Position numbers and translations under genes: made by a program | Part shown: piece after piece, positions 33,530-54,378 of the stretch | Numbering within the stretch: the stretch's first letter is position 1 | Layout: each line of letters opens with the position of its first letter | DNA from: a bacterium | GTDB taxonomy: Bacteria; UBP14; UBA6098; JAFGQG01 | Direction of reading: 5' to 3' | DNA: 63,753 nucleotides | NCBI GenBank assembly: GCA_016930435.1 | Contig: JAFGGQ010000010.1 | Span: forward strand, 1 to 63,753 | The notes under the pieces: model-generated | Seen by the model: only the letters and a program-made list of their open reading frames with translations | What the model was told of the DNA's origin: nothing | The model's database searches: none

Positions 33530-33556
33530 TCTTAAACCTCCTGTAAGGATTTAAGG

Positions 33557-35971: not shown

Positions 35972-36016
35972 TATCTCTCCTTTCACAGTTATTATCAATG
36001 GTATTAAATTATATAT

Positions 36017-36045
36017 AATTTATTTACTAAATGTATAATTGTCAA
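36017..36045 (-). promoter_or_regulatory. Candidate sigma70-type promoter for the 33557..35971 / 29207..33529 pair
   Basis: The minus strand reads TTGACA (36045..36040), a 17-nt spacer, then TAAATT (36022..36017). It lies between the upstream terminator and ATG 35971. Confidence 0.4.
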
Positions 36046-36100
36046 GAAAATTAATAAATACAATTATATTATAGGCTTACATACACATATAATAAAAAAA

Positions 36101-36127
36101 AAGCCCCTTGTTTCTGACAAGGGGCTT
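36101..36127 (-). terminator. Rho-independent terminator after the 1572-aa gene
   Basis: A perfect 10-bp GC-rich stem AAGCCCCTTG / CAAGGGGCTT with a 7-nt loop, 26 nt past the stop at 36153. It is followed on the minus strand by a 9-T run (and by T5 on the plus strand). Confidence 0.85.
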
Positions 36128-36152
36128 TTTATATCCGCATTGAATTTGGATT

Positions 36153-36410
36153 CTATTTCATGAACATCATCTTTACTACTTTGGAATAGGAAGGGGTTTG
36201 AAGCTGGCAGAAATATACTCCGCTTGGGAGGGTTTGCCCGGACATATCCCTTCCATCCCACATCACCGTATAGGTTCCGGCTGCTTTCAGGCCATCAATT
36301 AGAGTAACCATCTTCTCGCCATAGATATTGAAGACAGCGACCTCAACAGCCTCATCGGCAGGCAATCCGAATTGAATAGTGGTAGTGGGATTGAATGGAT
36401 TGGGGTAGTT
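36153..36410 (-). other. T9SS type-A C-terminal sorting domain
   Basis: NYPNPFNPTTTIQFGLPADEAVEVAVFNIYGEKM..YTVMWDGRDMSGQTLPSGVYFCQLQT..VKMMFMK. Confidence 0.85.
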
Positions 36411-39400
36411 CTGGTTCATTACGAAGTCAGTTGGAATATTTTCCTTTTCGTAAACATAACTAATCCCAGGTTCTATTCCGAAGAAGTTTAGAATAGCGTC
36501 GTATATTCTGGCAGGGCCAAACGGGGCGGCGACTAATTCCATAGCTCCTGCATAGCAAGCTGACAATACGGTCTGATAGCCATGGGTATAGGCAGCCACG
36601 CGCGCATTTCCGTCCTGATCGTGTAGTATCATGGTAGCGCCATCAGCATCGATCACATCAATGTATCGGTCTGCGAGTGACCCATCGTCATAGTCGGCTA
36701 CTATAAACCTGGGGCCAAAGAATGAACCGCCGACATAGGAGAACAATGAATCGACGTTACCAGTTGTTTCAACATAGCCATCTTCTATGAAAGATACTCC
36801 GAAGTAATCAAAGAAGGCTTGTTCAGTAGCGCTTCCGGATGAATATTCAGCGGCGAAGTCAGGCCCTTCAATATAGATGGGATTCCGCTCATCCAGATAA
36901 TCCATCAGCATATCCAGGCTGCTTTCGGGAATCTTGGTGTCATCGGCATCCTGAATACCAAGGCCGATGAAAATTGCTTCGTAGTCATCCAGAACATACA
37001 TATCCAGAGAGGCATCCTGGTCTGTTATGGTATAGCTTACGTCAAGGTCGTCCAGGTACATTGCCATAGCTTCATCTACACCCATTATTCCGCCAATCGG
37101 GGTAGCGCCATTATCGAAATCATAGATCAACAAGGTATTGGGATCGGGTATAGAGAGTACAGTTCCGCATGCGTATTCCCACACTTCATCACAATAGTCA
37201 TCACCATAAAATGTAACCATAGTAAAGCAATAGCTAACGCCTTCATCGAGGCCATAGACTCCCAGTCCCAGATCTCCCAGTCCGGTTCCGAACGGGATAC
37301 TTCCCAGGTAAGTCCAATCCCAGATATAATCAGAGTAGCCGTCTTCTGGGGCGATAAAGATACCTATGCTATCGCCTACTACCGTGGGCTCATCCCAGAA
37401 GAGGGTGATAAACAGTGTATCATCGATCAATGGACGGGCAAGGGTATCAGCTACTACATAAAGTTCGGGAATAAATGGTATAGCGGGAATAGTGAAGTTA
37501 TAAACAACGTCATCATCAACAGATGTAAGTGTTTCCACAACGGTGTAATAGCAATTAATACTGGCTGAGAGTATATAATCTGCACCACAGGCAAGATCGG
37601 TAAATTCATATTCACCGGTCTCATCGGTAGTAAATGGAACGCTGTTAAGTGTGATCAGAATTCCCGAGAAATCGGATACGCCTTCTAATGAGGCTGTACC
37701 TGATATTGAAACCATACGGGGCTGGAGGTTCAGGTTAACGGTCATGTGGTCCAGGAATTCGATAGTTGTATCGGCATCCAGAAAGCAGTTGTAACTTGCA
37801 GTAATGGTATAATCACCGGCATATACGCATGAATCAACGTAGTGACCGGAGGCATCAGTATAGTATGTTCCGAGGCCAGGGATCATTACCATAATTCCTT
37901 CGGCTGGTGTACCTGCAAGAGTGACCGTACCCTGAAGCATAAAACAGCCTTCAACTATGGTGAAATTAACCCCGCTCATATCACCTATAACTGTAACTTC
38001 ATCTTCCACATCGGGATAACCTATGTGAGAGATAGTAACTGTATAAGTTCCGGCATGAGCGCAATCGAACATATAGCTACCATCGTCAGCGGTTGTAGTT
38101 TCCAGGGTTTGTGTGGGAGATGTAAAGTTGACCACGGATCCACCCCATTCTCCGGAGGGTAATCCTTCAATATCTACAACGCCGGATACCTCGTAGCAGA
38201 AGAGCAGTAGTTCAGTAGTTTCCATGATTATATCTTCATCCAGGTCCACTTCAAAGCACTGGTCATAGTAACCTTCATAATGATAACAAAGGGTATAGTT
38301 AGCAGGATAATTATCAAGGAAGCAATAATCACCTGAGGCATCGGTCATTTCGGTAAGAAGTGTATCGCCTGTTCCGGTAATCATATAAACGTAAATATTT
38401 GAATAATCGGTTGCGTCTTCAAGTGTAACATTGCCGCAGAGGTCATAATAATCTTCTTCATTCCAGACGTGTACCCAAACCTGCTGACCAACTTCGACAT
38501 CGATCATACTTGTGGAGTGCATATCTACCCAAGCCGGTGAATCACCGGGATATACTGCGGCAATACTGAAATGCCAATCCTCTTCAGTAGGAAGCAGGGC
38601 AGTGGGATTCCAGCTAACCCAGTATGAGTTGCCATCGTCGGCGTTTTCCTGTTGGATAAGCCAGGTATGATCCAGCACGCCACGGTTGCGTATATCAGTG
38701 GTAAGATGATCGAACATGCAGCCGGGGTCATCGACGGGGAAGTACACGCAGAGTCCTGAAGGAGGACACAGCGGGAAACCTGCATCGTTAGGGTCACAGC
38801 CAATAGCGCCATTTTCCGCGGTGCCGATAACCAATGAGTAGAGGTTTTCGCCGATACCATCGTCTTCATGGTAAGTTAATGTAGCTGTCCAGATAGGCCC
38901 GGGGCTGACGGAGAAGCAGATCAATGTATCCAATTCGTTAGGCGGGATAGCCTGGTCTAAAGCAATTATCCTCACGCAAACTGTGCTGTAAGGGGGAAAT
39001 GGTTCTCCGGCATGATCATATAATAATGAATATCCGCCGCATTCACCAAGGGTTCCCATGTCAACTTCGCTGGTTACATCAATACCATTAACCATCATCA
39101 TAATAGAAGCCATTTCAACACCAGAACCTGCATCACAGATCTCAACATATACCGGTTCAGTGACATCTACTCCGGCTGCACCATTAATAGGATCGCTGTC
39201 GAGAACATAAGGGGCTGCAATGTCAAGTGTATCTGTAAAGTATTTGATCCAAACTACTTGGCCCGGGGAGAATGGTAAAGAATTGTACAGGTGCATATTG
39301 TACCAGTTATCTTCTGCGGGAGGGGTAAGGGAATCGCCCAAACCTATAAAGTAGGTTAATCCGGAAGGAAGCTCATCATTGTCCCAGTAAGTTCCCAGAT

Positions 39401-40871
39401 TATCGCCGGGGTTTTTAACGTACAATTTCCAGTACTTAGTACCGATCATGTTGTCCCGAACATCGGTTTGCAGCTTATCTATAGAAGGATACTCCGGATC
39501 ATTTAACAGGAAGTACATGCAGGGAGCGCCGGGCATGCAAAGCACCAAAGGAACATCAACGCCGGTATCGTATCCGTCACTTCCATCCCTGGATACTCCA
39601 AAATATCTTTCACGGAAAGTTGTATCTGAGCCTATTCTGCTCCAAACGGTAATATTTGCAAGCCAGCTGGCAACTGTGTCTTCACCGAGGCCTGTCCTGA
39701 ACATTATTGTATCAGCGACTGCATTACCATTCATATCTTCTGCATATACCCAGGCGGTATTCCAGTTATTAGGAGGTAAAGGCATAACCGGTTCATAACG
39801 AACCAGGTAATTTCCTGACAAGGGATGGTCAATAGCGCCAATAGTAGCCATTCCGGTAACGTTAGCGCCATTAACATTCAGGATGATGGATTCATCGTCC
39901 ACGCCAACGCCGCCATCCTTTATTTTAACTGAAATTGTGGCGTAGATATTGACACCAGTAGCCCCGTTAGCAGGAGTCCATTGCTCGGTATAAGGAGGAA
40001 TGCTATCCGGGGGAATAGGGGGTTGTGTTACAAAGCAGTAGGTCAGGGTGTCCATTTCATGAGCAGGATCTTCAAGGTCCTTTGCCCATATACGTACGCA
40101 AATTTCTGTTTCATGGTCAAAATCGGCGGGGGGATCATAAACAACATCATAACCATTGTAGTAAAGATAAGTGGTTTCGGTAGCTAAAACATCCCCTGAC
40201 ACATCTACCCCATCAACTTCTAAGAATAGTGAAGCCAAATCCACTCCGGACATATCATCGAATATAACGAACTGGATGTTTCGGTCCACTTCAACACCCA
40301 TACCCAGGGGTTGGAAACTGGTAACCATAGGAGCTTGAACATCGATAGATGATTCGGAGAGGAATTTTATTGCCACGTATTCCGTATCGGCGAACATAAA
40401 TGAATCTACACTGGTCATAACTATCCAGCTGGTAATATCAAATCCGATTACGCCGGCGCCGATATAATAGTATCCGACCGTTGGTCCAGGTACATTATCC
40501 AAATTCCAGGTGATCAATCTGTGGTCAGCAGAATCATCACCGCCCTGGAAAACGGTCCATATAATTGTATCATCTTCAGCATCCCTGATATCGGTTCCTA
40601 ACATGGTAATATGCGGAAAATCAGGATCAGTAAGCGGAAAATAAAAGAAAGAAGCGTCTGGTGGCGGAAAAAAAGGCACATCCAATGCTTCACCAGGCAT
40701 AGATTCGAACATATCGCTTCCATTTAAATCGGTTCCCAGAGTCAGCGTTGAAAAGGTAGAGCGATCGCCTGGATAGGCAACCACGCTAAAACGCCATTCT
40801 GCCGCAAAGGAAGTCACTGCCATTATAAATAGAAGGAACAAGCAGCTTAAGACAAACAATCTCCTTTCCAT
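36153..40871 (-). CDS. Giant secreted multidomain surface protein (1572 aa) with T9SS sorting domain
   Basis: The signal peptide is MERRLFVLSCLFLLFIMAVTSFA. Three module copies (40359..40799, 39237..39674, 38460..38897) are interleaved with SbsA-type Ig-like domains (APMVTSFQP, IPPYTEQWTP, AAPYVLDSDP). CarboxypepD_reg-like repeats follow, then the alpha/beta module (36471..37145) and the CTD. The architecture matches 29207..33529. Confidence 0.85.
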   Translation of the reverse strand: MERRLFVLSCLFLLFIMAVTSFAAEWRFSVVAYPGDRSTFSTLTLGTDLNGSDMFESMPGEALDVPFFPPPDASFFYFPLTDPDFPHITMLGTDIRDAEDDTIIWTVFQGGDDSADHRLITWNLDNVPGPTVGYYYIGAGVIGFDITSWIVMTSVDSFMFADTEYVAIKFLSESSIDVQAPMVTSFQPLGMGVEVDRNIQFVIFDDMSGVDLASLFLEVDGVDVSGDVLATETTYLYYNGYDVVYDPPADFDHETEICVRIWAKDLEDPAHEMDTLTYCFVTQPPIPPDSIPPYTEQWTPANGATGVNIYATISVKIKDGGVGVDDESIILNVNGANVTGMATIGAIDHPLSGNYLVRYEPVMPLPPNNWNTAWVYAEDMNGNAVADTIMFRTGLGEDTVASWLANITVWSRIGSDTTFRERYFGVSRDGSDGYDTGVDVPLVLCMPGAPCMYFLLNDPEYPSIDKLQTDVRDNMIGTKYWKLYVKNPGDNLGTYWDNDELPSGLTYFIGLGDSLTPPAEDNWYNMHLYNSLPFSPGQVVWIKYFTDTLDIAAPYVLDSDPINGAAGVDVTEPVYVEICDAGSGVEMASIMMMVNGIDVTSEVDMGTLGECGGYSLLYDHAGEPFPPYSTVCVRIIALDQAIPPNELDTLICFSVSPGPIWTATLTYHEDDGIGENLYSLVIGTAENGAIGCDPNDAGFPLCPPSGLCVYFPVDDPGCMFDHLTTDIRNRGVLDHTWLIQQENADDGNSYWVSWNPTALLPTEEDWHFSIAAVYPGDSPAWVDMHSTSMIDVEVGQQVWVHVWNEEDYYDLCGNVTLEDATDYSNIYVYMITGTGDTLLTEMTDASGDYCFLDNYPANYTLCYHYEGYYDQCFEVDLDEDIIMETTELLLFCYEVSGVVDIEGLPSGEWGGSVVNFTSPTQTLETTTADDGSYMFDCAHAGTYTVTISHIGYPDVEDEVTVIGDMSGVNFTIVEGCFMLQGTVTLAGTPAEGIMVMIPGLGTYYTDASGHYVDSCVYAGDYTITASYNCFLDADTTIEFLDHMTVNLNLQPRMVSISGTASLEGVSDFSGILITLNSVPFTTDETGEYEFTDLACGADYILSASINCYYTVVETLTSVDDDVVYNFTIPAIPFIPELYVVADTLARPLIDDTLFITLFWDEPTVVGDSIGIFIAPEDGYSDYIWDWTYLGSIPFGTGLGDLGLGVYGLDEGVSYCFTMVTFYGDDYCDEVWEYACGTVLSIPDPNTLLIYDFDNGATPIGGIMGVDEAMAMYLDDLDVSYTITDQDASLDMYVLDDYEAIFIGLGIQDADDTKIPESSLDMLMDYLDERNPIYIEGPDFAAEYSSGSATEQAFFDYFGVSFIEDGYVETTGNVDSLFSYVGGSFFGPRFIVADYDDGSLADRYIDVIDADGATMILHDQDGNARVAAYTHGYQTVLSACYAGAMELVAAPFGPARIYDAILNFFGIEPGISYVYEKENIPTDFVMNQNYPNPFNPTTTIQFGLPADEAVEVAVFNIYGEKMVTLIDGLKAAGTYTVMWDGRDMSGQTLPSGVYFCQLQTPSYSKVVKMMFMK

Positions 40872-40965: not shown

Positions 40966-40999
40966 GGGCTATAGGAGGGGCAATCCCCTCCCATAGCCC
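40966..40999 (-). terminator. Rho-independent terminator after the 2971-aa gene
   Basis: A 15-bp stem GGGCTATAGGAGGGG / CCCCTCCCATAGCCC (14 of 15 paired) with a 4-nt loop, 14 nt past the stop at 41014. It is followed on the minus strand by T7. Confidence 0.85.
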
Positions 41000-41013: not shown

Positions 41014-41271
41014 TTATTTCATCAAGATCATCTTCTTTATAGAAGAGAACTTGTCAGTCTTTAACTGATAGAAATAGATACCGGTAGCTACGCTGTTATC
41101 GGCAGCATCGCGGCCATTCCACATTACAGTCTTGAAACCAGCAGTTTCCTCACCGTTCAGCAAGGTAACCACTTTATCGCCCAGGACATTGTAAACTTCC
41201 AGAGTAACATTTGCGTCTTCCGGAAGGCCAAAGGAAATAGTAGTGGTTGCGTTAAACGGATTAGGATGATT
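41014..41271 (-). other. T9SS type-A C-terminal sorting domain
   Basis: NHPNPFNATTTISFGLPEDANVTLEVYNVLGDKV..KTVMWNGRDAADNSVATGIYFYQLKTD..IKKMILMK. Confidence 0.85.
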
Positions 41272-44200
41272 CTGTGCCAAGGTGTAACTATCAGGAATAA
41301 TGGCTTTTACTGCCACTAACTTGTAGGTCCCACTTGTAATTGCTACTGGAGTGGAAAGATCATTTCTCTGATCATCCCTCTGCAGGAAGAAGGTGTATCC
41401 TTCTGGCAGATCATTAGCTACCAGATTGAACTCGCCTCTTACGTTCAGGTCCCAGGTAATCACGTTATCTGGTGCCTTTACGCTATGCAGGAGTGATTGA
41501 TCGAGGGAAACATCCGGGCGGTCGGGCATAGCGGGTAAGCTGATCCGGTCCGCGCCGCGATCGTATCCTTCAGTAGCGCCTTCACCAACACCGATGGTCA
41601 GGTCTTTTGCAAAACCTTTACCTTCGATGGAGATCGGGCTATTCCAGAGAGGCTTTACAGCAGCGCTCTTCATGATAGTATGAACCACGCGTCCTCGGGC
41701 GGGTACATAAAGAGTACCGGGAGCAGCGGCGAGTACAAGATGAGCGGCACAAGGAGTGAGTTCTTCTACCTGAATATAAGCGTCGATGCAGGCATCATAC
41801 CAGAATACATTATCAGGTTCGATGATACCGGCAGGATCGGTATCCGGTGTTACGAACGGAATGGGTTCGCACAGGGAACCAACGAGGTTCCAACCGGCCA
41901 CGATGGGTATAGCCCATTCTTCTACGCACCTGCCACAAACGGTAACGGTAGCGTAGTCAGGAGAGAAGGCTACATAGCCCAAGCGGTAATCCAATTCGGT
42001 ATCCCGATCAAGAGGGCCTACGAATAAACCGGAGGCATCCATACTATAGATATCTACATCAGCCGGGAAATTGGCTTCGATCGTAGCATCTTCCAGCATT
42101 CTGGGCAGAGATATGAAGTTCCAGCCAGGGCAGAACTCATAGACGCAGCAGGTGAGGTGAGGAGCCACAACCACATTGGCTTCAATGCAGTTGCCAGCCA
42201 GGTCACAAATGGTCATGTGAACGGTTTGACCATCGGTGAAACCTACCACCACCGGTGTAATACTGCCATCTTCGTTTACCCATACACGTTGTACGAAGAC
42301 GCCATTAGTATCGAGATCGACGTAAACATAGCCACCGCCAACGGGGTCATAGAAACCGGCATCTATGAAGTTATCATAGATTGCGCCAGCATCAGCGGAG
42401 AAGGACACTTCAGTGGCATAGATGAGTTCTTCATCCAGCACTACCGGATAAGTAACGTCAACCAGTACCCATTTCCCTTCGGAGATGGAGGACATGGCCT
42501 CGTCGTAATCCAGGATGTTTCCAGCAACATCGCGGCCCTTTACCTTGATTTTGGTCAGACCGTTACCCCTGACATCATTAGCTACTGTCCAGGTATAGAT
42601 GTAGCTGATATCATCAAAGAAAGCAGGGGGTATCCAGGCGCCCATAGCGGGTAATGTTCCATCGAATACTCTGGAGTGCCATAATCTGGTTTCCAGGGCA
42701 TCATTAGGATCATCGGTATTGAAACCGGGATTGGGTTGACCGTCAATGGTCAATCTCAGGTGGCTCCAATTCCTGCCTGTAGGATCGTAATCGACGAATC
42801 CTTCGCTGCTTTCTTCCTGGTCGAAGACGGTCTCATGCCAGTAAACGTTGATGTCAATTTCATCAGCGTTAGTGACCCATATCTTTTCATCGGGCAGATC
42901 ATCGTGCCGGCAATCCATCAAAGGATCACCAACCTCAGTTCTGGCCAGGGCGGTAACATAATAAGGATCGTAGGTATCCAACAGGATATAAGATACGTGG
43001 TTGGTAATGGTGTGTTCACTATAGAATTCATTCCAGAAGTACAGTGTAACAGTAACCCTAACCGGACCATCGTACCGGTTGTCCATGTCGTCCACGATCC
43101 AGTTATAAACGTAATAATACATCTCGTCACACGGATTCATAACGAGATCATCGGGGGTAAAGAGCAGTTCAATACGGAGGTTTGAACCTGAGATATTGCC
43201 GCCGAATTCATCCTCGATGATCATCCGGATTGAGTCCGCACCTACATCCATGAACATAACGTAGAGTGAATCGCCGGGATATCCGCCGGTCTCTACGTAA
43301 GGATGCAAGAGGGGATCTTCCGGTCCGGAGGTGTAATCAGGATTGGAGAATGTGGTTATGGGGAATCTTTCGAGGTACGGGAATGCGTCCACAATACCAT
43401 CAAGTTCGCCATTTACCCAACCGGGCCAATCCGGGAGGCACATGTCTTCATCCCAAGGATAAAGATCGCCAAAGGTGGACAAAGTGGCATCGTAGAAGTC
43501 GTCGCCCCGGGCGAATAAAACTTCGTAAGGTACCAATACGCTTTCCATAACCGTGCTGAAAGTTTGGTAGTAGGTTTCGTAATCGGTCATGTAGCAGTCA
43601 CCTTCGGATGTACACTCACCATATTGATTATTGATCAGGTCATAACCCCTGGTTTTAATGCTGTAGAGGCCAGGTGTCAAGCCATTGGTCGTCCAATCCC
43701 AATCATATATGATGACATCGTTGACCGGATCGTAGTAAGGATTGCTGGGGTATGCTCCTACGGGAACATAACTGCAGTAACCCGAACTCAGATGAGCACC
43801 CTCTGGATAAATAGAGTAGTGATCGCCGGTCAAGAGGTCCAAATAGTAGTAGAGAACGTAGTCAACATCGGATACGCCGTCACCGGAGAGAACGATCCTT
43901 ACTTCATCAGTAGATTTAGGTATGATGGTCAATCCGATGCCAGGGGGAATGTCCCCGCCAGCGATCGTATCAAAATCTACCTGTCCGCATGGGGATTCAT
44001 TATCCACCATGACATTGAGCAGTATATCGTCCAGGTATTCTTCATGGTAGAAACGGGAGTAAACCCTGAATTCTACGGTGAGGTATTTTTCCTGTGTGTT
44101 GTACTGATGCAGGACATCATATACGGCTGCAGGCAGAATCTGGCAGCTTTCCCTGGGGTTATCGATGACATAATGGAAGGCGGAAACCGCTGAAGCGGGA

Positions 44201-47200
44201 ATCTCGGTCCATTCTTCATCGTGCCAGTAGAGATACCAGACCACACTATCGGTGATAGCGATGTCATAGTTGAAGCTGGAGATATCATAATTTCTGGGAT
44301 CGATAGTATCGCAAGCCCAGACACAGAGTTCGCCGCTTCTACCGGTTATCACCAGGCGATCGTCATAAGGCGGTGAAGCCCAAGGGTCGGTGTGAGCCCT
44401 ATCGGAGCTATCTACCGCAGGCCAGCAGATGTCAGGATAGTAGTAATTGGTTTCGATACGGAACGGGAAGTCGCGGGTAGTCATAATGTTGGCGGCATTG
44501 TCGTCGAAGCCGGACACCCTTAGGGTAGCCACTCCGTCCATCACTCCATCGCCAGCAATTATCATATAACCGATCCATTCCCGGTCGGTATTCCAACCGT
44601 TATCCAGGAACATGGCTTCAGCTTCTTCACTGACGGAGCCCATTTCTCCAAGGCCCTCATCGGGGAACATTCTTGGGGCCATAATTCCGTGGTCATAGTT
44701 AACATATTGATCCGATAAAGGATAGAATCCCGCATGGGTCTCGATAGGTATTACCGGGAACCAGTGGGTCCAGCCTTCGGGCCGGAAACGAACGATATAT
44801 CCGTAGGAGGCATCAGCAGCCCGCATATCCATATTATCGTCAAACCAGAGTCTAACGTAAATGGTGCAGACATCGCCGAAGTTGTATATACCTATTAAGG
44901 AATCCTGTTGAGCGTGGCCCGGATCCCAAGGCAGCCAGCAGTAGCGAGGATCCCAGTCGGTAAATTCATCGACTACCACACAACTGGGTTCTATGGTCAT
45001 CCCACCAAGAGAATCGTAGGTGGTATCGTAGGTACATTCCTCATACTGATAGGTGCTGAAGGCGAGGCCCTTAACTTCAGGCAGGCCGTTATCCAGGATC
45101 ATCTGGGGGGAATACAGATAGCATTGATTACCCAGACGGTCTTGAATAATTGCCTCGGCATGAATGGTATCGGCGATGAAGATAGTATCTTCTTCGAGGG
45201 TATTCAGGACGGCAGTTGTGCCTTCAACTGAATATTCCAGGCCGGTGTACATTGTGATGGGCCCAACGGCGTGATGACGGCCAGGGATCTCTTCAGGAGC
45301 GCAGTTGTAGATGGAAAGATGCTCGTTGGTGTAGAGATAATAGGTGCCGTAGTTGTAGGTCAGCATGAGTTCGGCATTTGCCCAGGTACCCATTTCATAA
45401 ACCAGCCAGTCGGAACCCTGGACCACTGAGGGCAGCGGCCATACGGTGTTCCAACCCATAGGAGTAGTCGTATTGCCGGAGCAACCCACGTCCGCATCCC
45501 TGATATTCTCCAGCCTTACTCTCACGGCATTGTTGTCAGCATGTCTCTCGATGCAGTTAACCTCTTCATAGCCGTAGAGTCCTTCCAGAGTGGCAAACCT
45601 TCCGGTAGGAGGCAGCATATCAATGATGTAGTCCCATCTGAACTCTTTATATGTAGTATAAGGAGTATTGAACTGATTGGGGGTTTTTACATGAATACCC
45701 AGAGTAACTACCAGGCTGTCACGGTGCTGATAACCAATAATGGTATCTATGACCATGGTTTCGCCGATCCAGGTAGTATCGTAATCCCTGTAGGAATCCA
45801 GCCACTGATGCATCTGATCCAAAGGCCCAATGCGGAAGTAGCCGTAGTCATAGCAGCGGTATCTATCGGGGTAGTATTCCAGGAAGCATGGGGAACAGTG
45901 GCAATTGTAATAATCGGTGTAATCCCAGACCAGGTCGCCCATCGCATCCCACAGTTCGAGGTTCACGAAAGGAGCTCTTTCGGTCAGGGTATCATGGAAG
46001 GTATCTTCTACGCATTCCAGGATGAAGCTGTCCACGCAGGTTACCATGGCGACCCACATGAAATTGAGGTCTTTGGCAAACTTATCCACATAATCATCCC
46101 TTGAGTGGATCATCGAGATCCCCTCTAATTCGGGATAAGGAAGAGCATAGATGTAATCGTACATACCATGCAGATCCTGAGGATAGCCATAAGGCCTTGC
46201 CATAGCCCAGTCTGTATAGGCTTCATCATTGAACCAATCCACGGACTGTATATAGGTTTCACCCTGAATCTGGATAGTATCCACATAGACAAGAGCCCAG
46301 TTGGGGTTTACATAGTCCATATAAATATGTCTCCAGTAGTCGTAGCAGGATGAATCCCAGTGGAGGAGTGAATCGGGTCCGATAAAGTAATTATGAATAT
46401 CCCTACGCCAGCTTGTGGTAGGCGTATTGGCATAAGTATCGTTCAGGTGATACCATCGATAGCCATAACCGAATGGGTCTTCAGTAGCAGGGTACCAAGG
46501 CACATTAACCCCGTCGCCAGCCCAGATTTCGACCTGCACCACATCTCCGGGTTGGAAGAAATGGCATTCGGTATTCATGCTATCCCAGCAGTTCAGGCTC
46601 AGTCTGGCTTCCCTGGTGGGATCCAGTCCTAATGGTCCGCCATAATCAAGGGTAGCATAACGGTATTGTTCTCTGTCAACGTGCTCTCCCAGCATCCAGC
46701 TGCCGTAAGTAACATTAGTCCAGCAGATAGTATCGGGAACGGCATTGTAGGGATTACCGCCATGGAGGCTATCCAGGAAGATCAGCCGGATATCCGCGGC
46801 TTCAACCCCAGCTACCCATTCGTCGCACCAGATAGCTCCGACCCTATCGCTGATATCCTTGAGGTCGAAATACCATGGGTCACAGCATGGGCCACCGGGT
46901 TGAGCGTCGATCAGGACAGGGGCATGTATATCGATGAAGAAACTCCAACGTGCCACCTGTCTTTGAATGGGATAGAGAAAATCGGGATCGCGGGTATCGA
47001 TAGCGTGGTTACGGCCGGGAACGAAAACGTCCACCAGCCAGCTTTCGTCTTCACATTCGATCTCGAAATTATCGGGGTGGCAATCGTTGTAAGCGTTATC
47101 CCAAACATAAACGGTAACGCAGATCTTATCACCAGCCCGGAATCTCATGTTGGAGGGGAATCTTCGATACGGATCGAAGGTTACCCTGACGCCCCATTCT

Positions 47201-49929
47201 CCTTCAACCTTTTCCAGATCCATCCAGTCATCGCCGGGTCCGGTCCAGATAAAGTTACGGCCTTCCCATGGCCGAGAGGGGTAATCAATATAGCTGGGAT
47301 GCCAGGTGCCATCACAACCCCGAACCTTGATATTCATAACCAGCCGGTCATCGGGATCGCTGCCGGTATAAACACCAGCTACGCAGTTATAAAGGTTAGC
47401 AAAATTGCTGTCCACATTAGGGCAATCCAACTGGTCGTAGATATCCACGGTGATAACCTGGAAGGAATCGCTTGAGACCCATTGTCTGGGCGGATAGAAT
47501 GTAGTATCCGGAGCAGTAGGGCCCTTCAGGTCGATTCTAACGATACCCAGGGTATCCGGGCTGTACTGGGTATAGCCGGGACAGGCCAGGGGGCCGGATT
47601 CCAGGGTAACGTGGTTATCGCGGTCATTGTCGGTTCCATAGTTAGGATCCATACCACCGGTTGCGCACCAGGAATCGGAGGGTACCAAATCGGCACGAGG
47701 GGGTAATACTCCATAATATGATTCGTCGGATTGACCGTAATCAGGATCGTCAAATAATGAAGTCAATATTACATAAACTACATCACCGGATTGTAGTTCC
47801 CAGTCGGAACCGAAATCCGGATCATAGAGGAAGAGCTCTTCGAAGTTGACCCACATGGTTGAGCGGTAGTAACATTCACCGTAGCATTCATCGATATAAA
47901 CGCCGCCGGTGATGATATCGTCCTCATCGACGTAGAGAGTTCTGGAGAAAGTAGATTCACAGCAGGCATAGATATCGAACTGCACTATGAAATCGCGTTT
48001 GTTTATACCGGCACCGTCAACGTGTCCGGTGTAGTATAGTCCATGATTTGTGCGGTCGTGAACGCGGTCGTAATCATCATAGACTTCGATTTCAAGGGTA
48101 GGCAGCGAATCAGCGAGCCAGCGGTAATAAACCAGCTCTCTTTCGATGGTCTCACTACGACGGTTGATACCGGAGAATTCTTCGGTGTCGTTGTCATGGC
48201 CATCGGCTTCGGGGCATATCAATTCGGCATTGGGGCCGGAGAGGTCAACACGGAACTGCCAGGTAGTATCTGCATACCATCCCTCTAAAGTGGAATAAGA
48301 GGACCAGGGCCAGTCGGCGTGAGTAGTCCGGTTCCAGGTATTAATGGTCACCCGAACATTAGCGCCATCGATAAAGCAGTTGAGGAAATCATCAGAATCG
48401 CCAGCCATCTGCATTCCGTTTTCAATCACGAAGGAGTCTGTGCAGCAGTGTTCCAGGTTTGTGCAACCTAATGGATAAACCATACATTCCGGCCATGTTC
48501 CCCAACCTACCGGTTCAGTCCAGTTAGTGGGGGAATTCCAGTATCGGTATTTCCATTCCCATCCTGCACTGGGACCGCTGTTGAATTGATCGTAAGGAAG
48601 GGTTGGTTTATTCCGGAAGTATATCCTGGTTTGCAGCCAGGGGTCGTGATATTCAGGGAAGAGAGGGGGGTTAATATATTCAATAATAACCATAACTGAT
48701 TCCACGCAGGTCTGCACATCTCTGATTTTGAAGGAGATGGGCTGAGTGGAGTCAGCGGTAAAGATCATGTCATCGGGGTCATCTTGACAATCGGTATAAG
48801 GACCGTTGGAGAGTACCACGTTTCTGGGATAAAGTTCCCTGATCTGGGGCTTTAATTTATCCCAACCGATAATTTCTTCGGAGCGTGCCCACCGGCCCCT
48901 GTCGGGATCAGAACCCCAGCCAGGTAGGGTGGTATCGGGAATGTCAAAGTTTCGAAGAATGTAGCAGTCGGTATGGGCATCGGCCATAGAAACGGGAGCC
49001 ACTTCAGCGGGGTTAATTTTATAGACAATAAGGTGTTCTTTGGCAACGATGTTAACGTAAAATGTATCCAGGTTGGACATACCTTCGATAACGTATCCAT
49101 CGGTCATACAAGGGACATTAAACCAAAAGTTGTCTCCGATGTCGATCCGCGAGTGGCAACCTTCCGCTCTCAGGATCATCCAGTATCTCAGGAAGGGTAA
49201 TCCATAAGAGGGAATATCCAGCATGTCGCGGTCCATAAGATAACTTTCGAACAGTATGGTAGCCTGCCACCATTTCCATGTGGGATAAGGGTTCGGAATT
49301 CCAACGGGGGCAGAAACTTCGTACCACTGATCGTCTGCATAGATAGTTGTGCAAATTTCGGTTGCGGGATTGCAGAGGGTTACCATATCACGATAAGCTT
49401 CGGGATGGTCACGAAGGTCAATATCGTCAAAAGTATTGACATTGGAGCCAGCAGCCATTCCCTGCTCTTCGTAAAACTGTAGGCCCATCATGGTATGAAT
49501 GTCCGGACCACCCACGTAAGCGGAATCAGGATACCGAGCCTGGGCCCGGGCACGAGATATCGGAAGCAAGTCGTGGTTAGGATCGAAATCCGGGCTACCG
49601 TAAAGGGTTACAGTAACACCGATCCAGTAGTTATCAGAAGCTGTAGAAAGCAGGTCGAATCTCATGAAAGCAGCATCCGAATCGAGTGGGTTAAAATCGT
49701 CAGTGGGGTCCACATACCGGAGATACCTGGAGCTACGAGGAGCACCCCAGGAATCAACTCTGGAGTAATCCGTTGTGTACCAGCCAGGGATTTCATCTCC
49801 GTACACGGACGGGGAATAGGGAGGCATTAGGTTGAAGGTGTTTGCGTACTGCCAAGTAGCAAACGCACTTGTACCCATTAATACCAGACAAGCCAGAATC
49901 AGCATGGATACAATCGTTTTCTTTCCCAT
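41014..49929 (-). CDS. Giant secreted protein (2971 aa) of unknown fold with T9SS sorting domain
   Basis: I start at ATG 49929 behind AAAGGAGAG (the tracked start is 50010). The signal peptide is MGKKTIVSMLILACLVLMGTSAFA. This is a single uninterrupted 8.9-kb ORF, strongly enriched in Asp, Tyr, Trp, Pro and Cys. It ends in a canonical CTD. I see no catalytic motif and no family outside the C-terminal ~300 aa. Confidence 0.85.
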   Translation of the reverse strand: MGKKTIVSMLILACLVLMGTSAFATWQYANTFNLMPPYSPSVYGDEIPGWYTTDYSRVDSWGAPRSSRYLRYVDPTDDFNPLDSDAAFMRFDLLSTASDNYWIGVTVTLYGSPDFDPNHDLLPISRARAQARYPDSAYVGGPDIHTMMGLQFYEEQGMAAGSNVNTFDDIDLRDHPEAYRDMVTLCNPATEICTTIYADDQWYEVSAPVGIPNPYPTWKWWQATILFESYLMDRDMLDIPSYGLPFLRYWMILRAEGCHSRIDIGDNFWFNVPCMTDGYVIEGMSNLDTFYVNIVAKEHLIVYKINPAEVAPVSMADAHTDCYILRNFDIPDTTLPGWGSDPDRGRWARSEEIIGWDKLKPQIRELYPRNVVLSNGPYTDCQDDPDDMIFTADSTQPISFKIRDVQTCVESVMVIIEYINPPLFPEYHDPWLQTRIYFRNKPTLPYDQFNSGPSAGWEWKYRYWNSPTNWTEPVGWGTWPECMVYPLGCTNLEHCCTDSFVIENGMQMAGDSDDFLNCFIDGANVRVTINTWNRTTHADWPWSSYSTLEGWYADTTWQFRVDLSGPNAELICPEADGHDNDTEEFSGINRRSETIERELVYYRWLADSLPTLEIEVYDDYDRVHDRTNHGLYYTGHVDGAGINKRDFIVQFDIYACCESTFSRTLYVDEDDIITGGVYIDECYGECYYRSTMWVNFEELFLYDPDFGSDWELQSGDVVYVILTSLFDDPDYGQSDESYYGVLPPRADLVPSDSWCATGGMDPNYGTDNDRDNHVTLESGPLACPGYTQYSPDTLGIVRIDLKGPTAPDTTFYPPRQWVSSDSFQVITVDIYDQLDCPNVDSNFANLYNCVAGVYTGSDPDDRLVMNIKVRGCDGTWHPSYIDYPSRPWEGRNFIWTGPGDDWMDLEKVEGEWGVRVTFDPYRRFPSNMRFRAGDKICVTVYVWDNAYNDCHPDNFEIECEDESWLVDVFVPGRNHAIDTRDPDFLYPIQRQVARWSFFIDIHAPVLIDAQPGGPCCDPWYFDLKDISDRVGAIWCDEWVAGVEAADIRLIFLDSLHGGNPYNAVPDTICWTNVTYGSWMLGEHVDREQYRYATLDYGGPLGLDPTREARLSLNCWDSMNTECHFFQPGDVVQVEIWAGDGVNVPWYPATEDPFGYGYRWYHLNDTYANTPTTSWRRDIHNYFIGPDSLLHWDSSCYDYWRHIYMDYVNPNWALVYVDTIQIQGETYIQSVDWFNDEAYTDWAMARPYGYPQDLHGMYDYIYALPYPELEGISMIHSRDDYVDKFAKDLNFMWVAMVTCVDSFILECVEDTFHDTLTERAPFVNLELWDAMGDLVWDYTDYYNCHCSPCFLEYYPDRYRCYDYGYFRIGPLDQMHQWLDSYRDYDTTWIGETMVIDTIIGYQHRDSLVVTLGIHVKTPNQFNTPYTTYKEFRWDYIIDMLPPTGRFATLEGLYGYEEVNCIERHADNNAVRVRLENIRDADVGCSGNTTTPMGWNTVWPLPSVVQGSDWLVYEMGTWANAELMLTYNYGTYYLYTNEHLSIYNCAPEEIPGRHHAVGPITMYTGLEYSVEGTTAVLNTLEEDTIFIADTIHAEAIIQDRLGNQCYLYSPQMILDNGLPEVKGLAFSTYQYEECTYDTTYDSLGGMTIEPSCVVVDEFTDWDPRYCWLPWDPGHAQQDSLIGIYNFGDVCTIYVRLWFDDNMDMRAADASYGYIVRFRPEGWTHWFPVIPIETHAGFYPLSDQYVNYDHGIMAPRMFPDEGLGEMGSVSEEAEAMFLDNGWNTDREWIGYMIIAGDGVMDGVATLRVSGFDDNAANIMTTRDFPFRIETNYYYPDICWPAVDSSDRAHTDPWASPPYDDRLVITGRSGELCVWACDTIDPRNYDISSFNYDIAITDSVVWYLYWHDEEWTEIPASAVSAFHYVIDNPRESCQILPAAVYDVLHQYNTQEKYLTVEFRVYSRFYHEEYLDDILLNVMVDNESPCGQVDFDTIAGGDIPPGIGLTIIPKSTDEVRIVLSGDGVSDVDYVLYYYLDLLTGDHYSIYPEGAHLSSGYCSYVPVGAYPSNPYYDPVNDVIIYDWDWTTNGLTPGLYSIKTRGYDLINNQYGECTSEGDCYMTDYETYYQTFSTVMESVLVPYEVLFARGDDFYDATLSTFGDLYPWDEDMCLPDWPGWVNGELDGIVDAFPYLERFPITTFSNPDYTSGPEDPLLHPYVETGGYPGDSLYVMFMDVGADSIRMIIEDEFGGNISGSNLRIELLFTPDDLVMNPCDEMYYYVYNWIVDDMDNRYDGPVRVTVTLYFWNEFYSEHTITNHVSYILLDTYDPYYVTALARTEVGDPLMDCRHDDLPDEKIWVTNADEIDINVYWHETVFDQEESSEGFVDYDPTGRNWSHLRLTIDGQPNPGFNTDDPNDALETRLWHSRVFDGTLPAMGAWIPPAFFDDISYIYTWTVANDVRGNGLTKIKVKGRDVAGNILDYDEAMSSISEGKWVLVDVTYPVVLDEELIYATEVSFSADAGAIYDNFIDAGFYDPVGGGYVYVDLDTNGVFVQRVWVNEDGSITPVVVGFTDGQTVHMTICDLAGNCIEANVVVAPHLTCCVYEFCPGWNFISLPRMLEDATIEANFPADVDIYSMDASGLFVGPLDRDTELDYRLGYVAFSPDYATVTVCGRCVEEWAIPIVAGWNLVGSLCEPIPFVTPDTDPAGIIEPDNVFWYDACIDAYIQVEELTPCAAHLVLAAAPGTLYVPARGRVVHTIMKSAAVKPLWNSPISIEGKGFAKDLTIGVGEGATEGYDRGADRISLPAMPDRPDVSLDQSLLHSVKAPDNVITWDLNVRGEFNLVANDLPEGYTFFLQRDDQRNDLSTPVAITSGTYKLVAVKAIIPDSYTLAQNHPNPFNATTTISFGLPEDANVTLEVYNVLGDKVVTLLNGEETAGFKTVMWNGRDAADNSVATGIYFYQLKTDKFSSIKKMILMK

Positions 49930-50092
49930 AACGCTACTCTCCTTTCGGTTATAGGTTTTATTTTTTCTCCACAAATTCTCGAGGAAACAAAAGAATCTAA
50001 CACTACCCAACTTAACCTCCTTGTAAGTTAAAACTTATATAATCAACCATTATTTCAATTCCGCGTTTAGATACCATTATTAATATAGCGTC

Positions 50093-50121
50093 AATATATT
50101 TATTACACTTATAGTTGTCAA
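50093..50121 (-). promoter_or_regulatory. Candidate sigma70-type promoter for the giant gene
   Basis: The minus strand reads TTGACA (50121..50116), a 17-nt spacer, then TATATT (50098..50093). This implies a ~160-nt AT-rich 5' leader. Confidence 0.4.
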
Positions 50122-50221
50122 GTGTTTTCTGACGCTGCGTAAAATTTCTAACATCAAAAAATTGCTAAATCAAATTTGAACCAAAATTAAATGCCACAGG
50201 TAAAATGTCAACAAAAAATTA

Positions 50222-51778
50222 TTAATATTCTAAAAAAAGATTATCGGATGTTGGCCAAAGCCTTTCAAATCTGAGGTTACAAACGATTTTCACCTCACCG
50301 GAAGTGTTCTTTTCAGAACCCTGGTGAAGGTAATTCCGGATGTCAAACCAGTCCAGACAAAGTGCGATGTCGAGCCCATTCCCAAACCATTTACGAATAT
50401 TTAATGAAAGTCTTTGGCTCGTTTCTACAGTGCCACTGGGAAAATCTTCCTTGTAGTGGTTTTCGGGTTGCAGCCATGGTTCGGACCAGGATTCTTCAAT
50501 AGAGCCCTCCCCCTTTCGGCAGACCTGGTAATTTAATTCCATAGGAAGAGTGGGGCTTATCCAGTATCTGCAAGCAACCCGATAGACCTCGACATCATTT
50601 CCCAAGGGGTAGCCCATGGGCTGGCCGGAGTAGGTCCAGCGGTTCCACACAAACCGCTGATTATAAGTCCAGTTGGACACCCTGTCATATTGTGCTTTCA
50701 GGGTCAAGGGACGGGAAAAAAGGGCGAGTCCGCTTTTCAGCCCTAACACCAGTCCATATTCGGTTGGCTCTTCGTCTTCGGGCGAGCTGCTCTCTATTTG
50801 AAAATCATCAATCATCAACTCTCCGTAGAACACAGTGCTCCGGTATTTTACACCCCAATCCAAACTGAGGATAGTATTGTCATTTGTATTGGCATTAAGC
50901 TGTTCGGCATGATACCAGAAGAGTGGCATTACATAAAGGGGCTCCAGTCCCCTTTGGGGCCCACCGTAAAGGACGAGTTCTGAAAGGCCGATGGAAAAAA
51001 GATTTTGGTAATCGAATCTGATCCGATGTCCGGCGATAAATCTCCGGGCTGAGCTTCCACCGTGTATCTCCGCTAATGAATCTGATAGCTGAATTTGATC
51101 CAGGAATCCGGTGAATGCCATGAACCGGAATTGTTTGGTTCCGGCCTCTGCGCTGATCAAGGGGAAAGGGTCGGACCAGGGATTCAGGGTCAGGCCGGAT
51201 GCCCAGCCCATATAATCCTTGCCGCATTTCAGCCGGAAATATGGGTTGAGGGTAGGTTGATAGACCATCATCACCTGTTGTGAACCTCCCGCAAAACCAT
51301 TCCATTTTTTACCCCGATATTCTGGTTCGTCATAAAGCTCCTGGTCAGCAAAATAACTGGTATAGAGGCTTAAACGCCGATCTTCCCAGCCAGTACCCAA
51401 CTTAACACTGCTATAGAGTTCCCGGGAATCCCGGTTTACCCAGCCCCTGCTCTTCAGTTCGGCTTCCACTCCAAAATGCCGCTGAGAAAAATGCGTATCA
51501 TCGATACCCAGATAATCAAGAATTTGGCTCCGGAAAAACGAGTACCTGGTGTCCTGATAATCCGTTGTAGCTTTAAGAATCTCACGCAATTCATTTTTAC
51601 TGAGGATGGTTTCACCCGGATAAAGACCCGAAGCATGAGGAGAAAGTGCAAATTCATCAAACAGGAGATAAAGAGGGTCTTCAGGTGAAAAAGGGATCCT
51701 TTCCCAGGAATGCAGATTACAATAAATGAATAGTATATATATATATATTATTAATATAAATCTTCTTCTATAAAGCAT
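50222..51778 (-). CDS. Outer-membrane beta-barrel protein, Wzi (capsule-assembly)-like
   Basis: 518 aa with the signal peptide MLYRRRFILIIYIYILFIY. A helical N-terminal segment is followed by many amphipathic beta-strand-like stretches, and the C-terminal residue is aromatic (..NLFLEY). The size and N-terminal pattern remind me of Pfam Caps_assemb_Wzi, but this is unverified. Confidence 0.45.
   Translation of the reverse strand: MLYRRRFILIIYIYILFIYCNLHSWERIPFSPEDPLYLLFDEFALSPHASGLYPGETILSKNELREILKATTDYQDTRYSFFRSQILDYLGIDDTHFSQRHFGVEAELKSRGWVNRDSRELYSSVKLGTGWEDRRLSLYTSYFADQELYDEPEYRGKKWNGFAGGSQQVMMVYQPTLNPYFRLKCGKDYMGWASGLTLNPWSDPFPLISAEAGTKQFRFMAFTGFLDQIQLSDSLAEIHGGSSARRFIAGHRIRFDYQNLFSIGLSELVLYGGPQRGLEPLYVMPLFWYHAEQLNANTNDNTILSLDWGVKYRSTVFYGELMIDDFQIESSSPEDEEPTEYGLVLGLKSGLALFSRPLTLKAQYDRVSNWTYNQRFVWNRWTYSGQPMGYPLGNDVEVYRVACRYWISPTLPMELNYQVCRKGEGSIEESWSEPWLQPENHYKEDFPSGTVETSQRLSLNIRKWFGNGLDIALCLDWFDIRNYLHQGSEKNTSGEVKIVCNLRFERLWPTSDNLFLEY
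51734..51748 (-). repeat. (TA)7 dinucleotide tract inside the signal-peptide coding region of the Wzi-like gene
   Basis: The direct read is tatatatatatatat, which encodes ..IYIYI.. . Confidence 0.9.
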
Positions 51779-51889
51779 TTTATTAGATAATTATTTTAAA
51801 AATCTTATTTGTAATTTAGTTATGTTACATTTAGAGCTAACCCATTTTTTTTTCAACCGGGAATAAAATTATACTTCTGCCGAAAAGAA

Positions 51890-52762
51890 TCAAGTTTTAT
51901 TTTGGGAAAATTGGCAATTACCCAAATATTCCTTCAATGCATCTGTCCAGGGACGATTATCGAATCCGGTTTTCTCTAATTTCCTGCAATTTAGGGCTTC
52001 CAGTGATGGGCGGGGGGCAAGAAGGTTCAAGTCATAACTATTTACAGGAATCAATTCATACCTGGACACCCTTAGGTTGTCGGCAATAACCTGCACCATT
52101 TCAGATCTGGAGACAACACCCTGGTTGGCAAAGTGATAAACGCCGTCAAGGGATCTGGAAAGCATATAATATACAGCTTTGGCCAGGTCTCGGGTGTAGG
52201 TGGGAGTGCCCCGGAGGTCTTTAGCAGCATATATAGGCAGCTTTTTTTCCAGCTTTTCTTTGATCTGCTGTACGAATTTTTTGTCCTTTTCATCCCCCCC
52301 AAAGAACCAGCACGATCTTACTATCAAATATGGGCTGTTCCGGAATACCGTCCGGAGGCAGAGTTCACCCTGGTATTTGCTGTGGCCATAAATATTTACT
52401 GGAGCCGGTTTTGCATCTTCAAAGTAAGGCTCCTTAGATTCCCCGTTAAAAATGCTCCCGGTACTCAAGTAAACCATAAACGCATTATTCTGTTTACAAA
52501 CCTGGCCCACATTAAGGGTTCCCTTAGCATTGACCAAAAGCGCTTCAGAGGGGTGTTCTTCACAGTAATCAACATCGGTCAGGGCAGCCAGATGAATAAC
52601 CACCCGGGGCTGGTATTTGTCAAACACATCCTGAATCCTCGTTTTATCGGTAACGTCCAGAATGTTTTCAGGAGGGGCTATCAGCTTAATGTCGGGCGGA
52701 CATTCTTTGATGAAGGCGGAGGCGGCCATTCCATTACTGCCAGTTAATAGAATTCTCTTCAT
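51890..52762 (-). CDS. RmlD-family NAD(P)-dependent sugar-nucleotide reductase (dTDP-4-dehydrorhamnose reductase-like)
   Basis: 290 aa with ILLTGSNGM, VIHLAALTDVDYCE and PVNIYGHSKYQGE (YxxxK). No rmlA, rmlB or rmlC is nearby, so the substrate is uncertain. Confidence 0.7.
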   Translation of the reverse strand: MKRILLTGSNGMAASAFIKECPPDIKLIAPPENILDVTDKTRIQDVFDKYQPRVVIHLAALTDVDYCEEHPSEALLVNAKGTLNVGQVCKQNNAFMVYLSTGSIFNGESKEPYFEDAKPAPVNIYGHSKYQGELCLRTVFRNSPYLIVRSCWFFGGDEKDKKFVQQIKEKLEKKLPIYAAKDLRGTPTYTRDLAKAVYYMLSRSLDGVYHFANQGVVSRSEMVQVIADNLRVSRYELIPVNSYDLNLLAPRPSLEALNCRKLEKTGFDNRPWTDALKEYLGNCQFSQNKT

Positions 52763-52821
52763 TTAGAATTGAGTTTGAAAATTGGGTCGATGATCGGTTG
52801 TATCAATAGATGGGTAAATAA

Positions 52822-53349
52822 TTAACCATCTTTATCCTTATCAAGGGGTACTGGGTCCATAACCCGCCGGAGCCGCTGGGCGGGAATCGCGCTGACAATC
52901 GTATTTGGGGCAACATTTCGGGTTACATAGCAATGAGCACCCACCAGGGCATTTTCTCCGATTGTAACGCCGCACATGATCGTTGCACTGGTGCCAATTG
53001 AGGCTCCCCTTTTGACCAGGGTGGGGGTGCATACCCAATCCTGCTCCGTTTGCAATTTGCCCCCAACCGTAGCCCGGGGATAACGGTCATTGATAAAGGA
53101 AACATTATGGCCTACAAAAACATCATCCTCTATAGTTACCCCTTCACAGATAAATGTATGACTGGAAATCTTGCAGTTCTTGCCGATTTTAACCCCTTTC
53201 TGAATCTCAACAAATGCTCCTACCTGGCTATTATCGCCGATTTCACAGCCATACAGATTCACAAAATCATAGACCTTTACATCCTTCCCCAGCACAACAT
53301 TATCAGCGATCTTCTGAAATTTCATTCCGGGGAACTCGTATTTGCTCAT
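52822..53349 (-). CDS. Left-handed beta-helix (hexapeptide) sugar N-acetyltransferase, WbpD/WlbB-like
   Basis: 175 aa. Hexapeptide repeats and the segment ..FINDRYPRA..LVKRGASIGTSATIMCGVTIGENALVGA.. parallel the UDP-2-acetamido-3-amino-2,3-dideoxy-glucuronate N-acetyltransferases. Confidence 0.7.
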   Translation of the reverse strand: MSKYEFPGMKFQKIADNVVLGKDVKVYDFVNLYGCEIGDNSQVGAFVEIQKGVKIGKNCKISSHTFICEGVTIEDDVFVGHNVSFINDRYPRATVGGKLQTEQDWVCTPTLVKRGASIGTSATIMCGVTIGENALVGAHCYVTRNVAPNTIVSAIPAQRLRRVMDPVPLDKDKDG

Positions 53350-54368: not shown

Positions 54369-54378
54369 GTTAACCTCC

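Follow-up and report, generated by a model that had tools for sequence, protein, structure and literature searches.

We examined a 63,753-nucleotide (nt) stretch of bacterial DNA, referred to below as the window (NCBI GenBank assembly GCA_016930435.1, contig JAFGGQ010000010.1; GTDB lineage UBP14, UBA6098), and within it a gene on the reverse strand encoding a protein of 2971 amino acids (aa), called the giant here. The giant is very probably a surface protein that would be exported by Sec and then by a type IX secretion system (T9SS), as a cargo of type A. Its gene and product were divided into the following features, all of them on the reverse strand.

50093..50121 (-), read 50121..50093: sigma-70-type promoter, TTGACA-17-TATATT, 11 of 12 positions matched
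49930..50086 (-): putative 5' leader of about 157 nt, including the ribosome-binding site AAGGAG, from a reading of the sequence
41014..49929 (-): coding sequence of the giant, 2971 aa plus stop, ATG at 49929
49861..49929 (-): Sec signal peptide, aa 1-23, MGKKTIVSMLILACLVLMGTSAFA, cleavage after AFA, from a reading of the sequence
48700..49860 (-): N-terminal region, aa 24-410, common to one other giant T9SS protein, P0024
43543..48699 (-): orphan body, aa 411-2129, family-specific, with boundaries at D562, D800, D1000, D1437, D1613 and, weaker, D1976
41266..43542 (-): C-terminal cassette, aa 2130-2888, from exhaustive profile search and collinear BLASTP matches
42154..42459 (-): immunoglobulin (Ig)-like unit within the cassette, aa 2491-2592, LVDVTYP start and CDLAGN end, putatively of Big_6 type by transitive evidence
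41026..41265 (-): T9SS type A C-terminal sorting domain, aa 2889-2968 of 2971 (TIGR04183, PF18962)
40966..40999 (-), read 40999..40966: intrinsic terminator, 15-bp stem (10 G-C pairs), 4-nt loop and T7, 15 nt past the stop codon

A preliminary description of this DNA, made from the letters alone, had reported an intact 8.9-kb reading frame with its own promoter-like element, leader, Shine-Dalgarno sequence and terminator, and each of these was recovered, along with full-length collinear orthologs. The mechanical open reading frame runs from 41014 to 50010, opening at TTG, and the frame is intact. Because AAGGAG lies at 49939-49944, just 5' of the ATG at 49929, and because orthologous genes are preceded by the conserved block GAAAGGAGA..GCGTTATG, the product was taken to be 2971 aa long. 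The promoter was the top-scoring promoter-like site in a 9.7-kb region, its -35 block with the preceding A-tract, AAAAAGGTCTTGACAGT, is conserved 5' of the orthologs, and its position gives the leader its length. Judging from these signals, the giant gene forms a transcription unit of one gene, bounded by a near-consensus promoter of its own and by a strong terminator.

The leader matched no Rfam family, and its RNA fold was not more stable than that of shuffled sequence (z = +0.6). It was also noted that most orthologs are preceded by a promoter block of the form AAAAAAGGTCTTGACAGT-N17-TAT(A/T)TT (window 50093-50140; loci L002 and L004-L009), and that a second upstream TTGAC...TATATTT-like element is present in several loci, the window included.

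Secretion signals and the C-terminal cassette

The assignment to the T9SS draws on both ends of the protein. The N-terminus is the sole hydrophobic segment of the giant, and equivalent N-termini were found in the orthologs. At the opposite end, the sorting domain scored 36.7 bits against TIGR04183 (cut-off 23), 28.8 against PF18962 (cut-off 27) and 33.9 against FlgD_ig, and all nine family members examined in this way possessed a sorting-domain match. Five further proteins of the window carry such a domain, and since this brings the number to six with the giant, the T9SS machinery is likely to be encoded in the genome. The earlier statement that the protein cannot be placed in any family therefore holds for its body, which is without a family match, and fails for the protein as a whole, which is placed as T9SS type A cargo within a family of at least 23 members. 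A literature search within one collection of papers found none joining Zixibacteria and T9SS.

We found that recognisable sequence extends well beyond the last ~300 aa, to which the preliminary description had limited it, as the last ~845 aa are common to other T9SS cargo. An exhaustive profile search with aa 1600-2600 revealed distant relatives of the cassette, and in BLASTP and the alignment A6, aa 2130-2971 were collinear with the C-terminal parts of the following proteins.

P0026: 979 aa, 29% identity, E 1e-61
P0024: 2657 aa, 27% identity, E 2e-57
P0027: 1624 aa, 25% identity, E 4e-32
P0030: 828 aa, 27% identity, E 5e-30
P0028: 1772 aa, 27% identity, E 7e-24

An additional protein, P0025 (519 aa), which ends in a dockerin and has no sorting domain, matches part of the cassette with an hhalign probability of 99.7%. 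The cassette begins with an unnamed module and the D2318 unit, which are followed by the Ig-like unit, by a domain in which the GWN motif occurs twice, and by a pre-sorting domain; no Pfam family spans the unnamed parts. The giant itself gave no direct match to Pfam Big_6 (PF17936). Matches to Big_6 were found where aa 2491-2592 align in P0024, P0025, P0026, P0028 and P0030, at 26.7-30.8 bits with the cut-off of 27.6 reached by three of the five, and P0027 possesses a match of 28.4 bits, above the cut-off, just outside its best aligned stretch. Because the relatives match Big_6 at the aligned positions, aa 2491-2592 may be assigned transitively to a Big_6-type Ig domain.

These cassette-bearing cargo proteins are uncharacterised, and P0024, P0026, P0027, P0028 and P0030 resemble the giant in the Big_6-type unit, the two-GWN domain and the sorting domain. 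They differ from it in their N-terminal payloads, which are unrelated to that of the giant (P0028, for example, carries DUF11 repeats), with the exception of P0024: giant aa 4-410 aligned by BLASTP with P0024 aa 28-369 at 25% identity (E 1e-17). A genome scan with the P0024 N-domain gave no match. The corresponding scan with P0026 was dominated by the sorting-domain pattern, and it located the last ~380 aa also in metagenome-assembled genomes (MAGs) of Ignavibacteriota and Bacteroidota. As judged from these alignments, the cassette hosts quite different N-terminal payloads elsewhere, and the giant is a ~2100-aa family-specific body on a ~845-aa cassette. The presence of this cassette in otherwise unrelated T9SS cargo suggests an unnamed reusable stalk or anchor module outside Bacteroidota.

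The orphan body and its family

The distribution of the giant was assessed through profile searches and a genome scan, following a check that the preliminary description had proposed. A search of 5.8 billion protein clusters returned eight other full-length proteins (3011-3132 aa; 98-100% coverage, 38-64% identity) and beyond these only sorting-domain matches, in agreement with the profile search. Among 1.84 billion representatives searched exhaustively with HMMER, one more member emerged, of 3280 aa and with 37% identity over aa 7-2971. The scan of one genome per GTDB species gave 19 loci, all in uncultured MAGs and with a single locus per MAG. Fourteen of these loci were additional members, 12 of them open across the fetched range and two at contig ends. 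The sources of the carrier MAGs include Zodletone spring, Guaymas Basin, the Auka/Pescadero vents and cold seeps; one carrier record is labelled UBP14_UBA6098 and one Candidatus Zixiibacteriota. The candidate phylum UBP14 inhabits hydrothermal and marine sediments and has a G+C content of 41-54% (PMC11382960), and the window, at about 46% G+C, lies within this range. A genome scan with RecA did not discriminate between placements of the window organism, the best match being a Zixibacteria MAG at 70%, with two MAGs that carry the giant at 63%.

The orthologous family has at least 23 members, which are collinear, share 34-67% identity and are ~2970-3280 aa long; the nearest relative is 64-67% identical across the full length. 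Mean column identity in the family alignment was 56%, conservation in 50-aa windows ranged from 0.34 to 0.70, no hypervariable stretch was encountered, and indels of more than 20 aa were few. The giant family is narrowly distributed, of near-constant length and evenly conserved along the whole chain.

These data bear on whether the reading frame could be an artefact, produced by chimeric assembly or by chance read-through of a pseudogene, an explanation that we regard as having next to no probability. The only frame break encountered lies in another MAG (JBAMLU01, locus L011, at about nt 6678), where the ortholog changes frame; as this change adjoins a run of 10 N, the apparent truncation is probably an assembly gap, and no other observation spoke for such an artefact. 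Against it stand 23 independent relatives that are collinear with the giant and come from a variety of samples and assemblers, the closest of them similar over the full length, together with conserved start and stop signals. From the independent collinear relatives and the even conservation, chimerism and frameshift are excluded, short of read mapping.

The body of the giant resisted all family assignment. Between aa 24 and 2490 no Pfam or NCBIfam match was found in the giant or in nine family members, the matches of the giant being confined to its sorting domain, and family profiles (A1, A2, A3, A6) searched against the PDB returned only FlgD and sorting-domain matches. No Pfam match to cadherin, Big_x, He_PIG or similar domains was obtained at E <= 0.1 for the giant or E <= 1 for the nine members, and Pfam and NCBIfam detected no RHS/YD repeats or glycoside hydrolase catalytic domains. 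The expectation that no profile of cadherin, Big, Rhs or glycoside hydrolase families would cover most of the length was thus borne out. A bacterial alpha-2-macroglobulin was rejected because MG/A2M Pfam matches and the C[GLA]EQ motif are absent; the alpha-2-macroglobulin matches returned by Foldseek came from a model with a predicted local distance difference test (pLDDT) score of 39, at TM <= 0.1.

We further assessed whether the body consists of repeated units. BLASTP of the giant against itself gave no internal match, hhalign with sliding windows along the chain reached 58% probability at best, and 23-sequence unit profiles aligned one pair in register, the D800 and D1000 units (~134 columns, 61% probability, E 8e-5), with every other pair of units below 20%. 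The giant is accordingly no tandem repeat array, as had been stated, with at most one weakly similar pair. The further suggestion of a string of large, divergent, beta-rich units is plausible in its beta-rich part, while homology between the units is hardly supported beyond the one pair at 61%. The residues V, I, Y, F, W and T make up 34.5% of the giant and A, L, E, K, Q, M and R 27.7%, weakly favouring beta structure, and strands predominate in DSSP assignments of the AlphaFold2 models, which are not proof of beta structure because the pLDDT is 35-39. Foldseek searches with the models returned generic strings of Ig/FN3/MG sandwiches (TMq <= 0.1, rmsd 13-46 Å) and were discarded as evidence. 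As the units between the boundary motifs are 173-437 aa long, a single sandwich is too small to fill any of them, so that two or more sandwiches, or else a large insertion, must be present in each.

The boundaries themselves are marked by a hydrophobic strand followed by D-x-x-x-P, a motif reported earlier at eight places. All eight exist (D562, D800, D1000, D1437, D1613, D1976, D2318 and D2491), and all eight aspartates are invariant among the nine aligned members. Across 23 members, both D and P are kept at seven of the sites, and site 1976 is degenerate, with P lost in most members and D in some. The strict form hh-D-x3-P occurs nine times compared to 2.7 +/- 1.6 in shuffled sequences, an enrichment of about 3-fold. 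End motifs of the form D-x-A/L-G/A/Y-N were found at aa 944, 1597, 1810, 2467 and 2576, and together the starts and ends look like the edges of bacterial Ig-like domains. It had also been claimed that the start motif opens the Ig-like domains of neighbouring paralogs. The three downstream neighbours have the sorting domain alone in common with the giant by BLASTP and their bodies are unrelated, so the claim of paralogy falls; what remains of the motif claim is one coincidence, at aa 424 of the 29207-33529 protein, where the motif meets a weak, sub-threshold Pfam Ig-like (Big_5) match.

The giant was described as rich in Asp, Tyr, Trp, Pro and Cys, and the residue percentages agree (D 10.4%, Y 7.1%, P 6.4%, W 3.3%, C 2.3%; K 1.45%). 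The mature protein is ~337 kDa with a computed pI of 4.16. The T9SS cargo proteins of the window are acidic and Lys-poor, with a net charge of -8 to -13%, and the cytoplasmic and biosynthetic proteins range from -5 to +3%. Halophily was rejected as the source of this acidity because the cytoplasmic proteins of the window are not acidic; the confinement of acidity to T9SS cargo indicates a trait of secreted surface proteins rather than a halophilic adaptation. No residue type is better conserved than Trp, 41% of whose positions are invariant. The four Cys-Cys doublets noted earlier are all present (aa 495/496, 656/657, 1015/1016 and 2594/2595). Of these, C2594-C2595 alone is kept throughout the nine aligned members; each remaining doublet has one invariant Cys, and its second Cys is confined to the window protein and the relative nearest to it.

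Two conserved motifs were noted in the body, VHDxxNHG at aa 623-630 (48040-48063) and a C-x-C-x-x-C...C cluster at aa 1343-1359 (45853-45903), either of which might bind metal or form a disulfide knot. The heme-binding CxxCH, zincin HExxH and thioester C[GLA]EQ motifs do not occur in the giant, and its lone GxSxG and lone GDSL matches are at chance level.

The O-glycosylation sequon known from Tannerella forsythia, D(S/T)(A/I/L/V/M/T) (PMC8550257), is also over-represented in the giant, with 26 sites compared to 13.1 +/- 3.6 expected (z 3.6). Enrichment was found in the six orthologs tested (z 4.1-7.6) and in other T9SS cargo of the window (33557-35998, 36153-40871 and 58833-61169; z up to 5.0), and a cytoplasmic control set contained 23 sites compared to 14.7 expected (z 2.2). 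Control motifs in reverse order or based on E/N were not enriched in the giant, and nine of its 26 sequons are conserved in at least 18 members. The sequon excess hints at glycoproteins, though part of it is a general sequence bias.

Genomic neighbourhood

The window carries core-chromosome genes (RecA, FtsK, RpoA, SecY, the ribosomal protein operon and BamD). The genes directly flanking the giant are the following.

50222..51778 (-): Wzi-like outer-membrane protein gene, directly 5' of the giant; Pfam Caps_assemb_Wzi at 45.6 bits (cut-off 30.1)
36153..40871 (-): T9SS cargo of 1572 aa with CarboxypepD_reg repeats, directly 3' of the giant

The Wzi-like gene occupies the position directly 5' of the giant not only in the window but also in each of five orthologous loci, those whose upstream flank was read. 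It belongs to a polysaccharide gene set at 50222-55812 that also comprises RmlD, a hexapeptide acyltransferase, a GFO-type oxidoreductase and an initiating sugar transferase; RmlD occurs without RmlA, RmlB or RmlC nearby. On the other side, the partner protein is 1571-1590 aa long and was found directly downstream of the giant wherever that side was read. The partner is one of four large T9SS cargo genes besides the giant (1572, 813, 1440 and 778 aa; 29207-40871 and 58833-61169) that encode acidic, Lys-poor proteins with CarboxypepD_reg repeats. Three of them stand in a row directly 3' of the giant, and synteny in distant relatives is limited to the first.

The order RmlD, (GT4), Wzi-like gene, giant and ~1575-aa CarboxypepD_reg cargo is kept in five orthologous loci, and a sixth locus begins at the giant, again with the partner next. 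The outer flanks vary: the window has HisRS and HAL, four loci have Wza, Wzz, Wzy and a flippase, and one has LpxK and KdtA. A conserved core order with differing outer flanks argues for a functional link among RmlD, the Wzi-like gene, the giant and the partner rather than mere inherited order. In Escherichia coli, Wzi is an outer-membrane lectin that retains the group 1 capsule. The upstream neighbour of the giant is similar to it in its Caps_assemb_Wzi match and in standing, in the orthologous loci, at the end of a polysaccharide gene set that includes Wza-, Wzz-, Wzy- and flippase-like genes. E. coli wzi differs in having no coupled giant secreted protein, a coupling that we propose here from synteny only.

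Candidate roles at the cell surface

By analogy with type A cargo of Bacteroidota, the giant would cross the inner membrane by Sec and fold in the periplasm, after which the T9SS translocon would export it over the outer membrane. A PorU-type sortase would then remove the sorting domain, and the new C-terminus would be joined to a glycolipid, anionic in nature, on the cell surface. This would leave the cassette close to the cell, with the orphan body facing outward. The genomic context suggests that the giant and its ~1575-aa partner may together form a structural outer coat. The function of this coat would be linked to the surface polysaccharide of the same cell, made by the adjacent Wzy-type locus and held by the Wzi-like protein.

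This structural, surface-layer (S-layer)-like role with the co-conserved partner is the reading we favour, at a probability of roughly 0.35-0.4. It is proposed because of the single locus per MAG, the constant length, the even conservation, the absence of repeats, the co-conserved partner and the precedent of TfsA and TfsB of T. forsythia. The strong, conserved promoter and terminator signals and the partner are indirect hints at an abundant envelope protein. TfsA and TfsB resemble the giant in being large and acidic, in belonging to the cell surface and in ending with a sorting domain. They are ~1200-1400 aa long, and the giant is more than twice this length. The T. forsythia S-layer consists of these two proteins, its surface display is T9SS-dependent and T9SS mutants are without an S-layer (PMC4175972); the giant is likewise a predicted T9SS type A cargo. 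It differs from TfsA and TfsB in being Cys-rich and in belonging to a different phylum-level lineage. Searches of the giant against Pfam and NCBIfam matched no named S-layer family, with no direct sequence comparison to TfsA and TfsB having been made.

Several observations weigh against the coat. Classical S-layer proteins usually contain few or no Cys, and the giant has 68, of which 23 are invariant. A length of ~3000 aa also appears unusually large for an S-layer protomer. No T9SS machinery gene (PorK/L/M/N, Sov/SprA, PorU or PorV) was found among the annotated open reading frames of the 64-kb window. Codon adaptation, measured against a reference of 14 ribosomal protein genes, was flat over the window genes (0.69-0.76), and this permits no inference on expression level. 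AlphaFold2 models of two 1200-aa pieces from 9-sequence alignments reached a mean pLDDT of 35.5 and 38.8, with a predicted TM-score (pTM) of 0.29, and lend the coat no support at the level of fold. Finally, the adjacency to a polysaccharide locus could be inherited order without functional coupling.

A doubtful alternative is that the giant is a surface adhesin, a T9SS-anchored fibre whose aromatic-rich distal body binds particles, minerals, polymers or cells in the manner of SprB or repeat adhesins. The combination of T9SS cargo status with hhD-x3-P starts, D-x-A-G-N ends and a Big_6-type unit is consistent with such a fibre, and the richness in Trp and Tyr, with so many Trp invariant, fits carbohydrate-binding surfaces. 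The top Foldseek match fell in a large adhesion protein, in its extender region, and is not evidence because it came from the pLDDT-39 model at TM <= 0.1. Known giant adhesins typically show tandem repeats, length variation and hypervariability, and none of these was found among the orthologs. SprB of Flavobacterium johnsoniae, a T9SS gliding adhesin, is highly repetitive and has a type B sorting domain and a dedicated partner, SprF. The two would be alike as multi-thousand-residue, beta-rich, T9SS-exported surface proteins; the giant differs in being non-repetitive, in possessing a type A domain and in having a Wzi-like rather than an SprF-like adjacent gene.

It is distinctly improbable that the giant is a surface-tethered enzyme or enzyme scaffold with a novel polysaccharide- or protein-degrading activity in its orphan body. 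In favour of it, many T9SS cargo proteins are hydrolases, the cassette relative P0025 has at its end a dockerin, as is typical of complexes that degrade polymers, and the body contains the conserved polar motifs VHDxxNHG and C-x-C-x-x-C...C. Against this reading, Pfam, NCBIfam and PDB profiles returned no catalytic family, the HExxH, CxxCH and thioester motifs are absent with GxSxG and GDSL as chance-level singletons, and conservation is even over 3000 aa, unlike that of a catalytic domain between linkers.

Returning to the coat, its fullest version is unlikely as a whole. In it, the giant and its partner would be the outer protein coat of a UBP14/Zixibacteria-like lineage, with a non-repetitive 337-kDa protomer of undescribed folds in its ~2100-aa body, anchored by the T9SS and coupled to a Wzi-held polysaccharide. 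If this were true, the giant would be by far the largest S-layer-type protomer and would belong to the first T9SS-dependent S-layer outside Bacteroidota. The family would then be the main interface of a poorly known sediment and vent lineage with its surroundings, and would offer a handle for detecting, labelling or enriching these cells. The giant is possibly the main envelope protein of an uncultured lineage.

By its sequence, the giant is the type of a new family of T9SS-anchored giant surface proteins. Its unusual features appear to be the non-repetitive, evenly conserved 2100-aa orphan body and the conserved pairing with a Wzi-like gene, and there is no sign so far of a new principle. Its ~2100 conserved residues, for which neither a relative beyond the family nor a usable structure model could be obtained, make the family a clean target for structural discovery.

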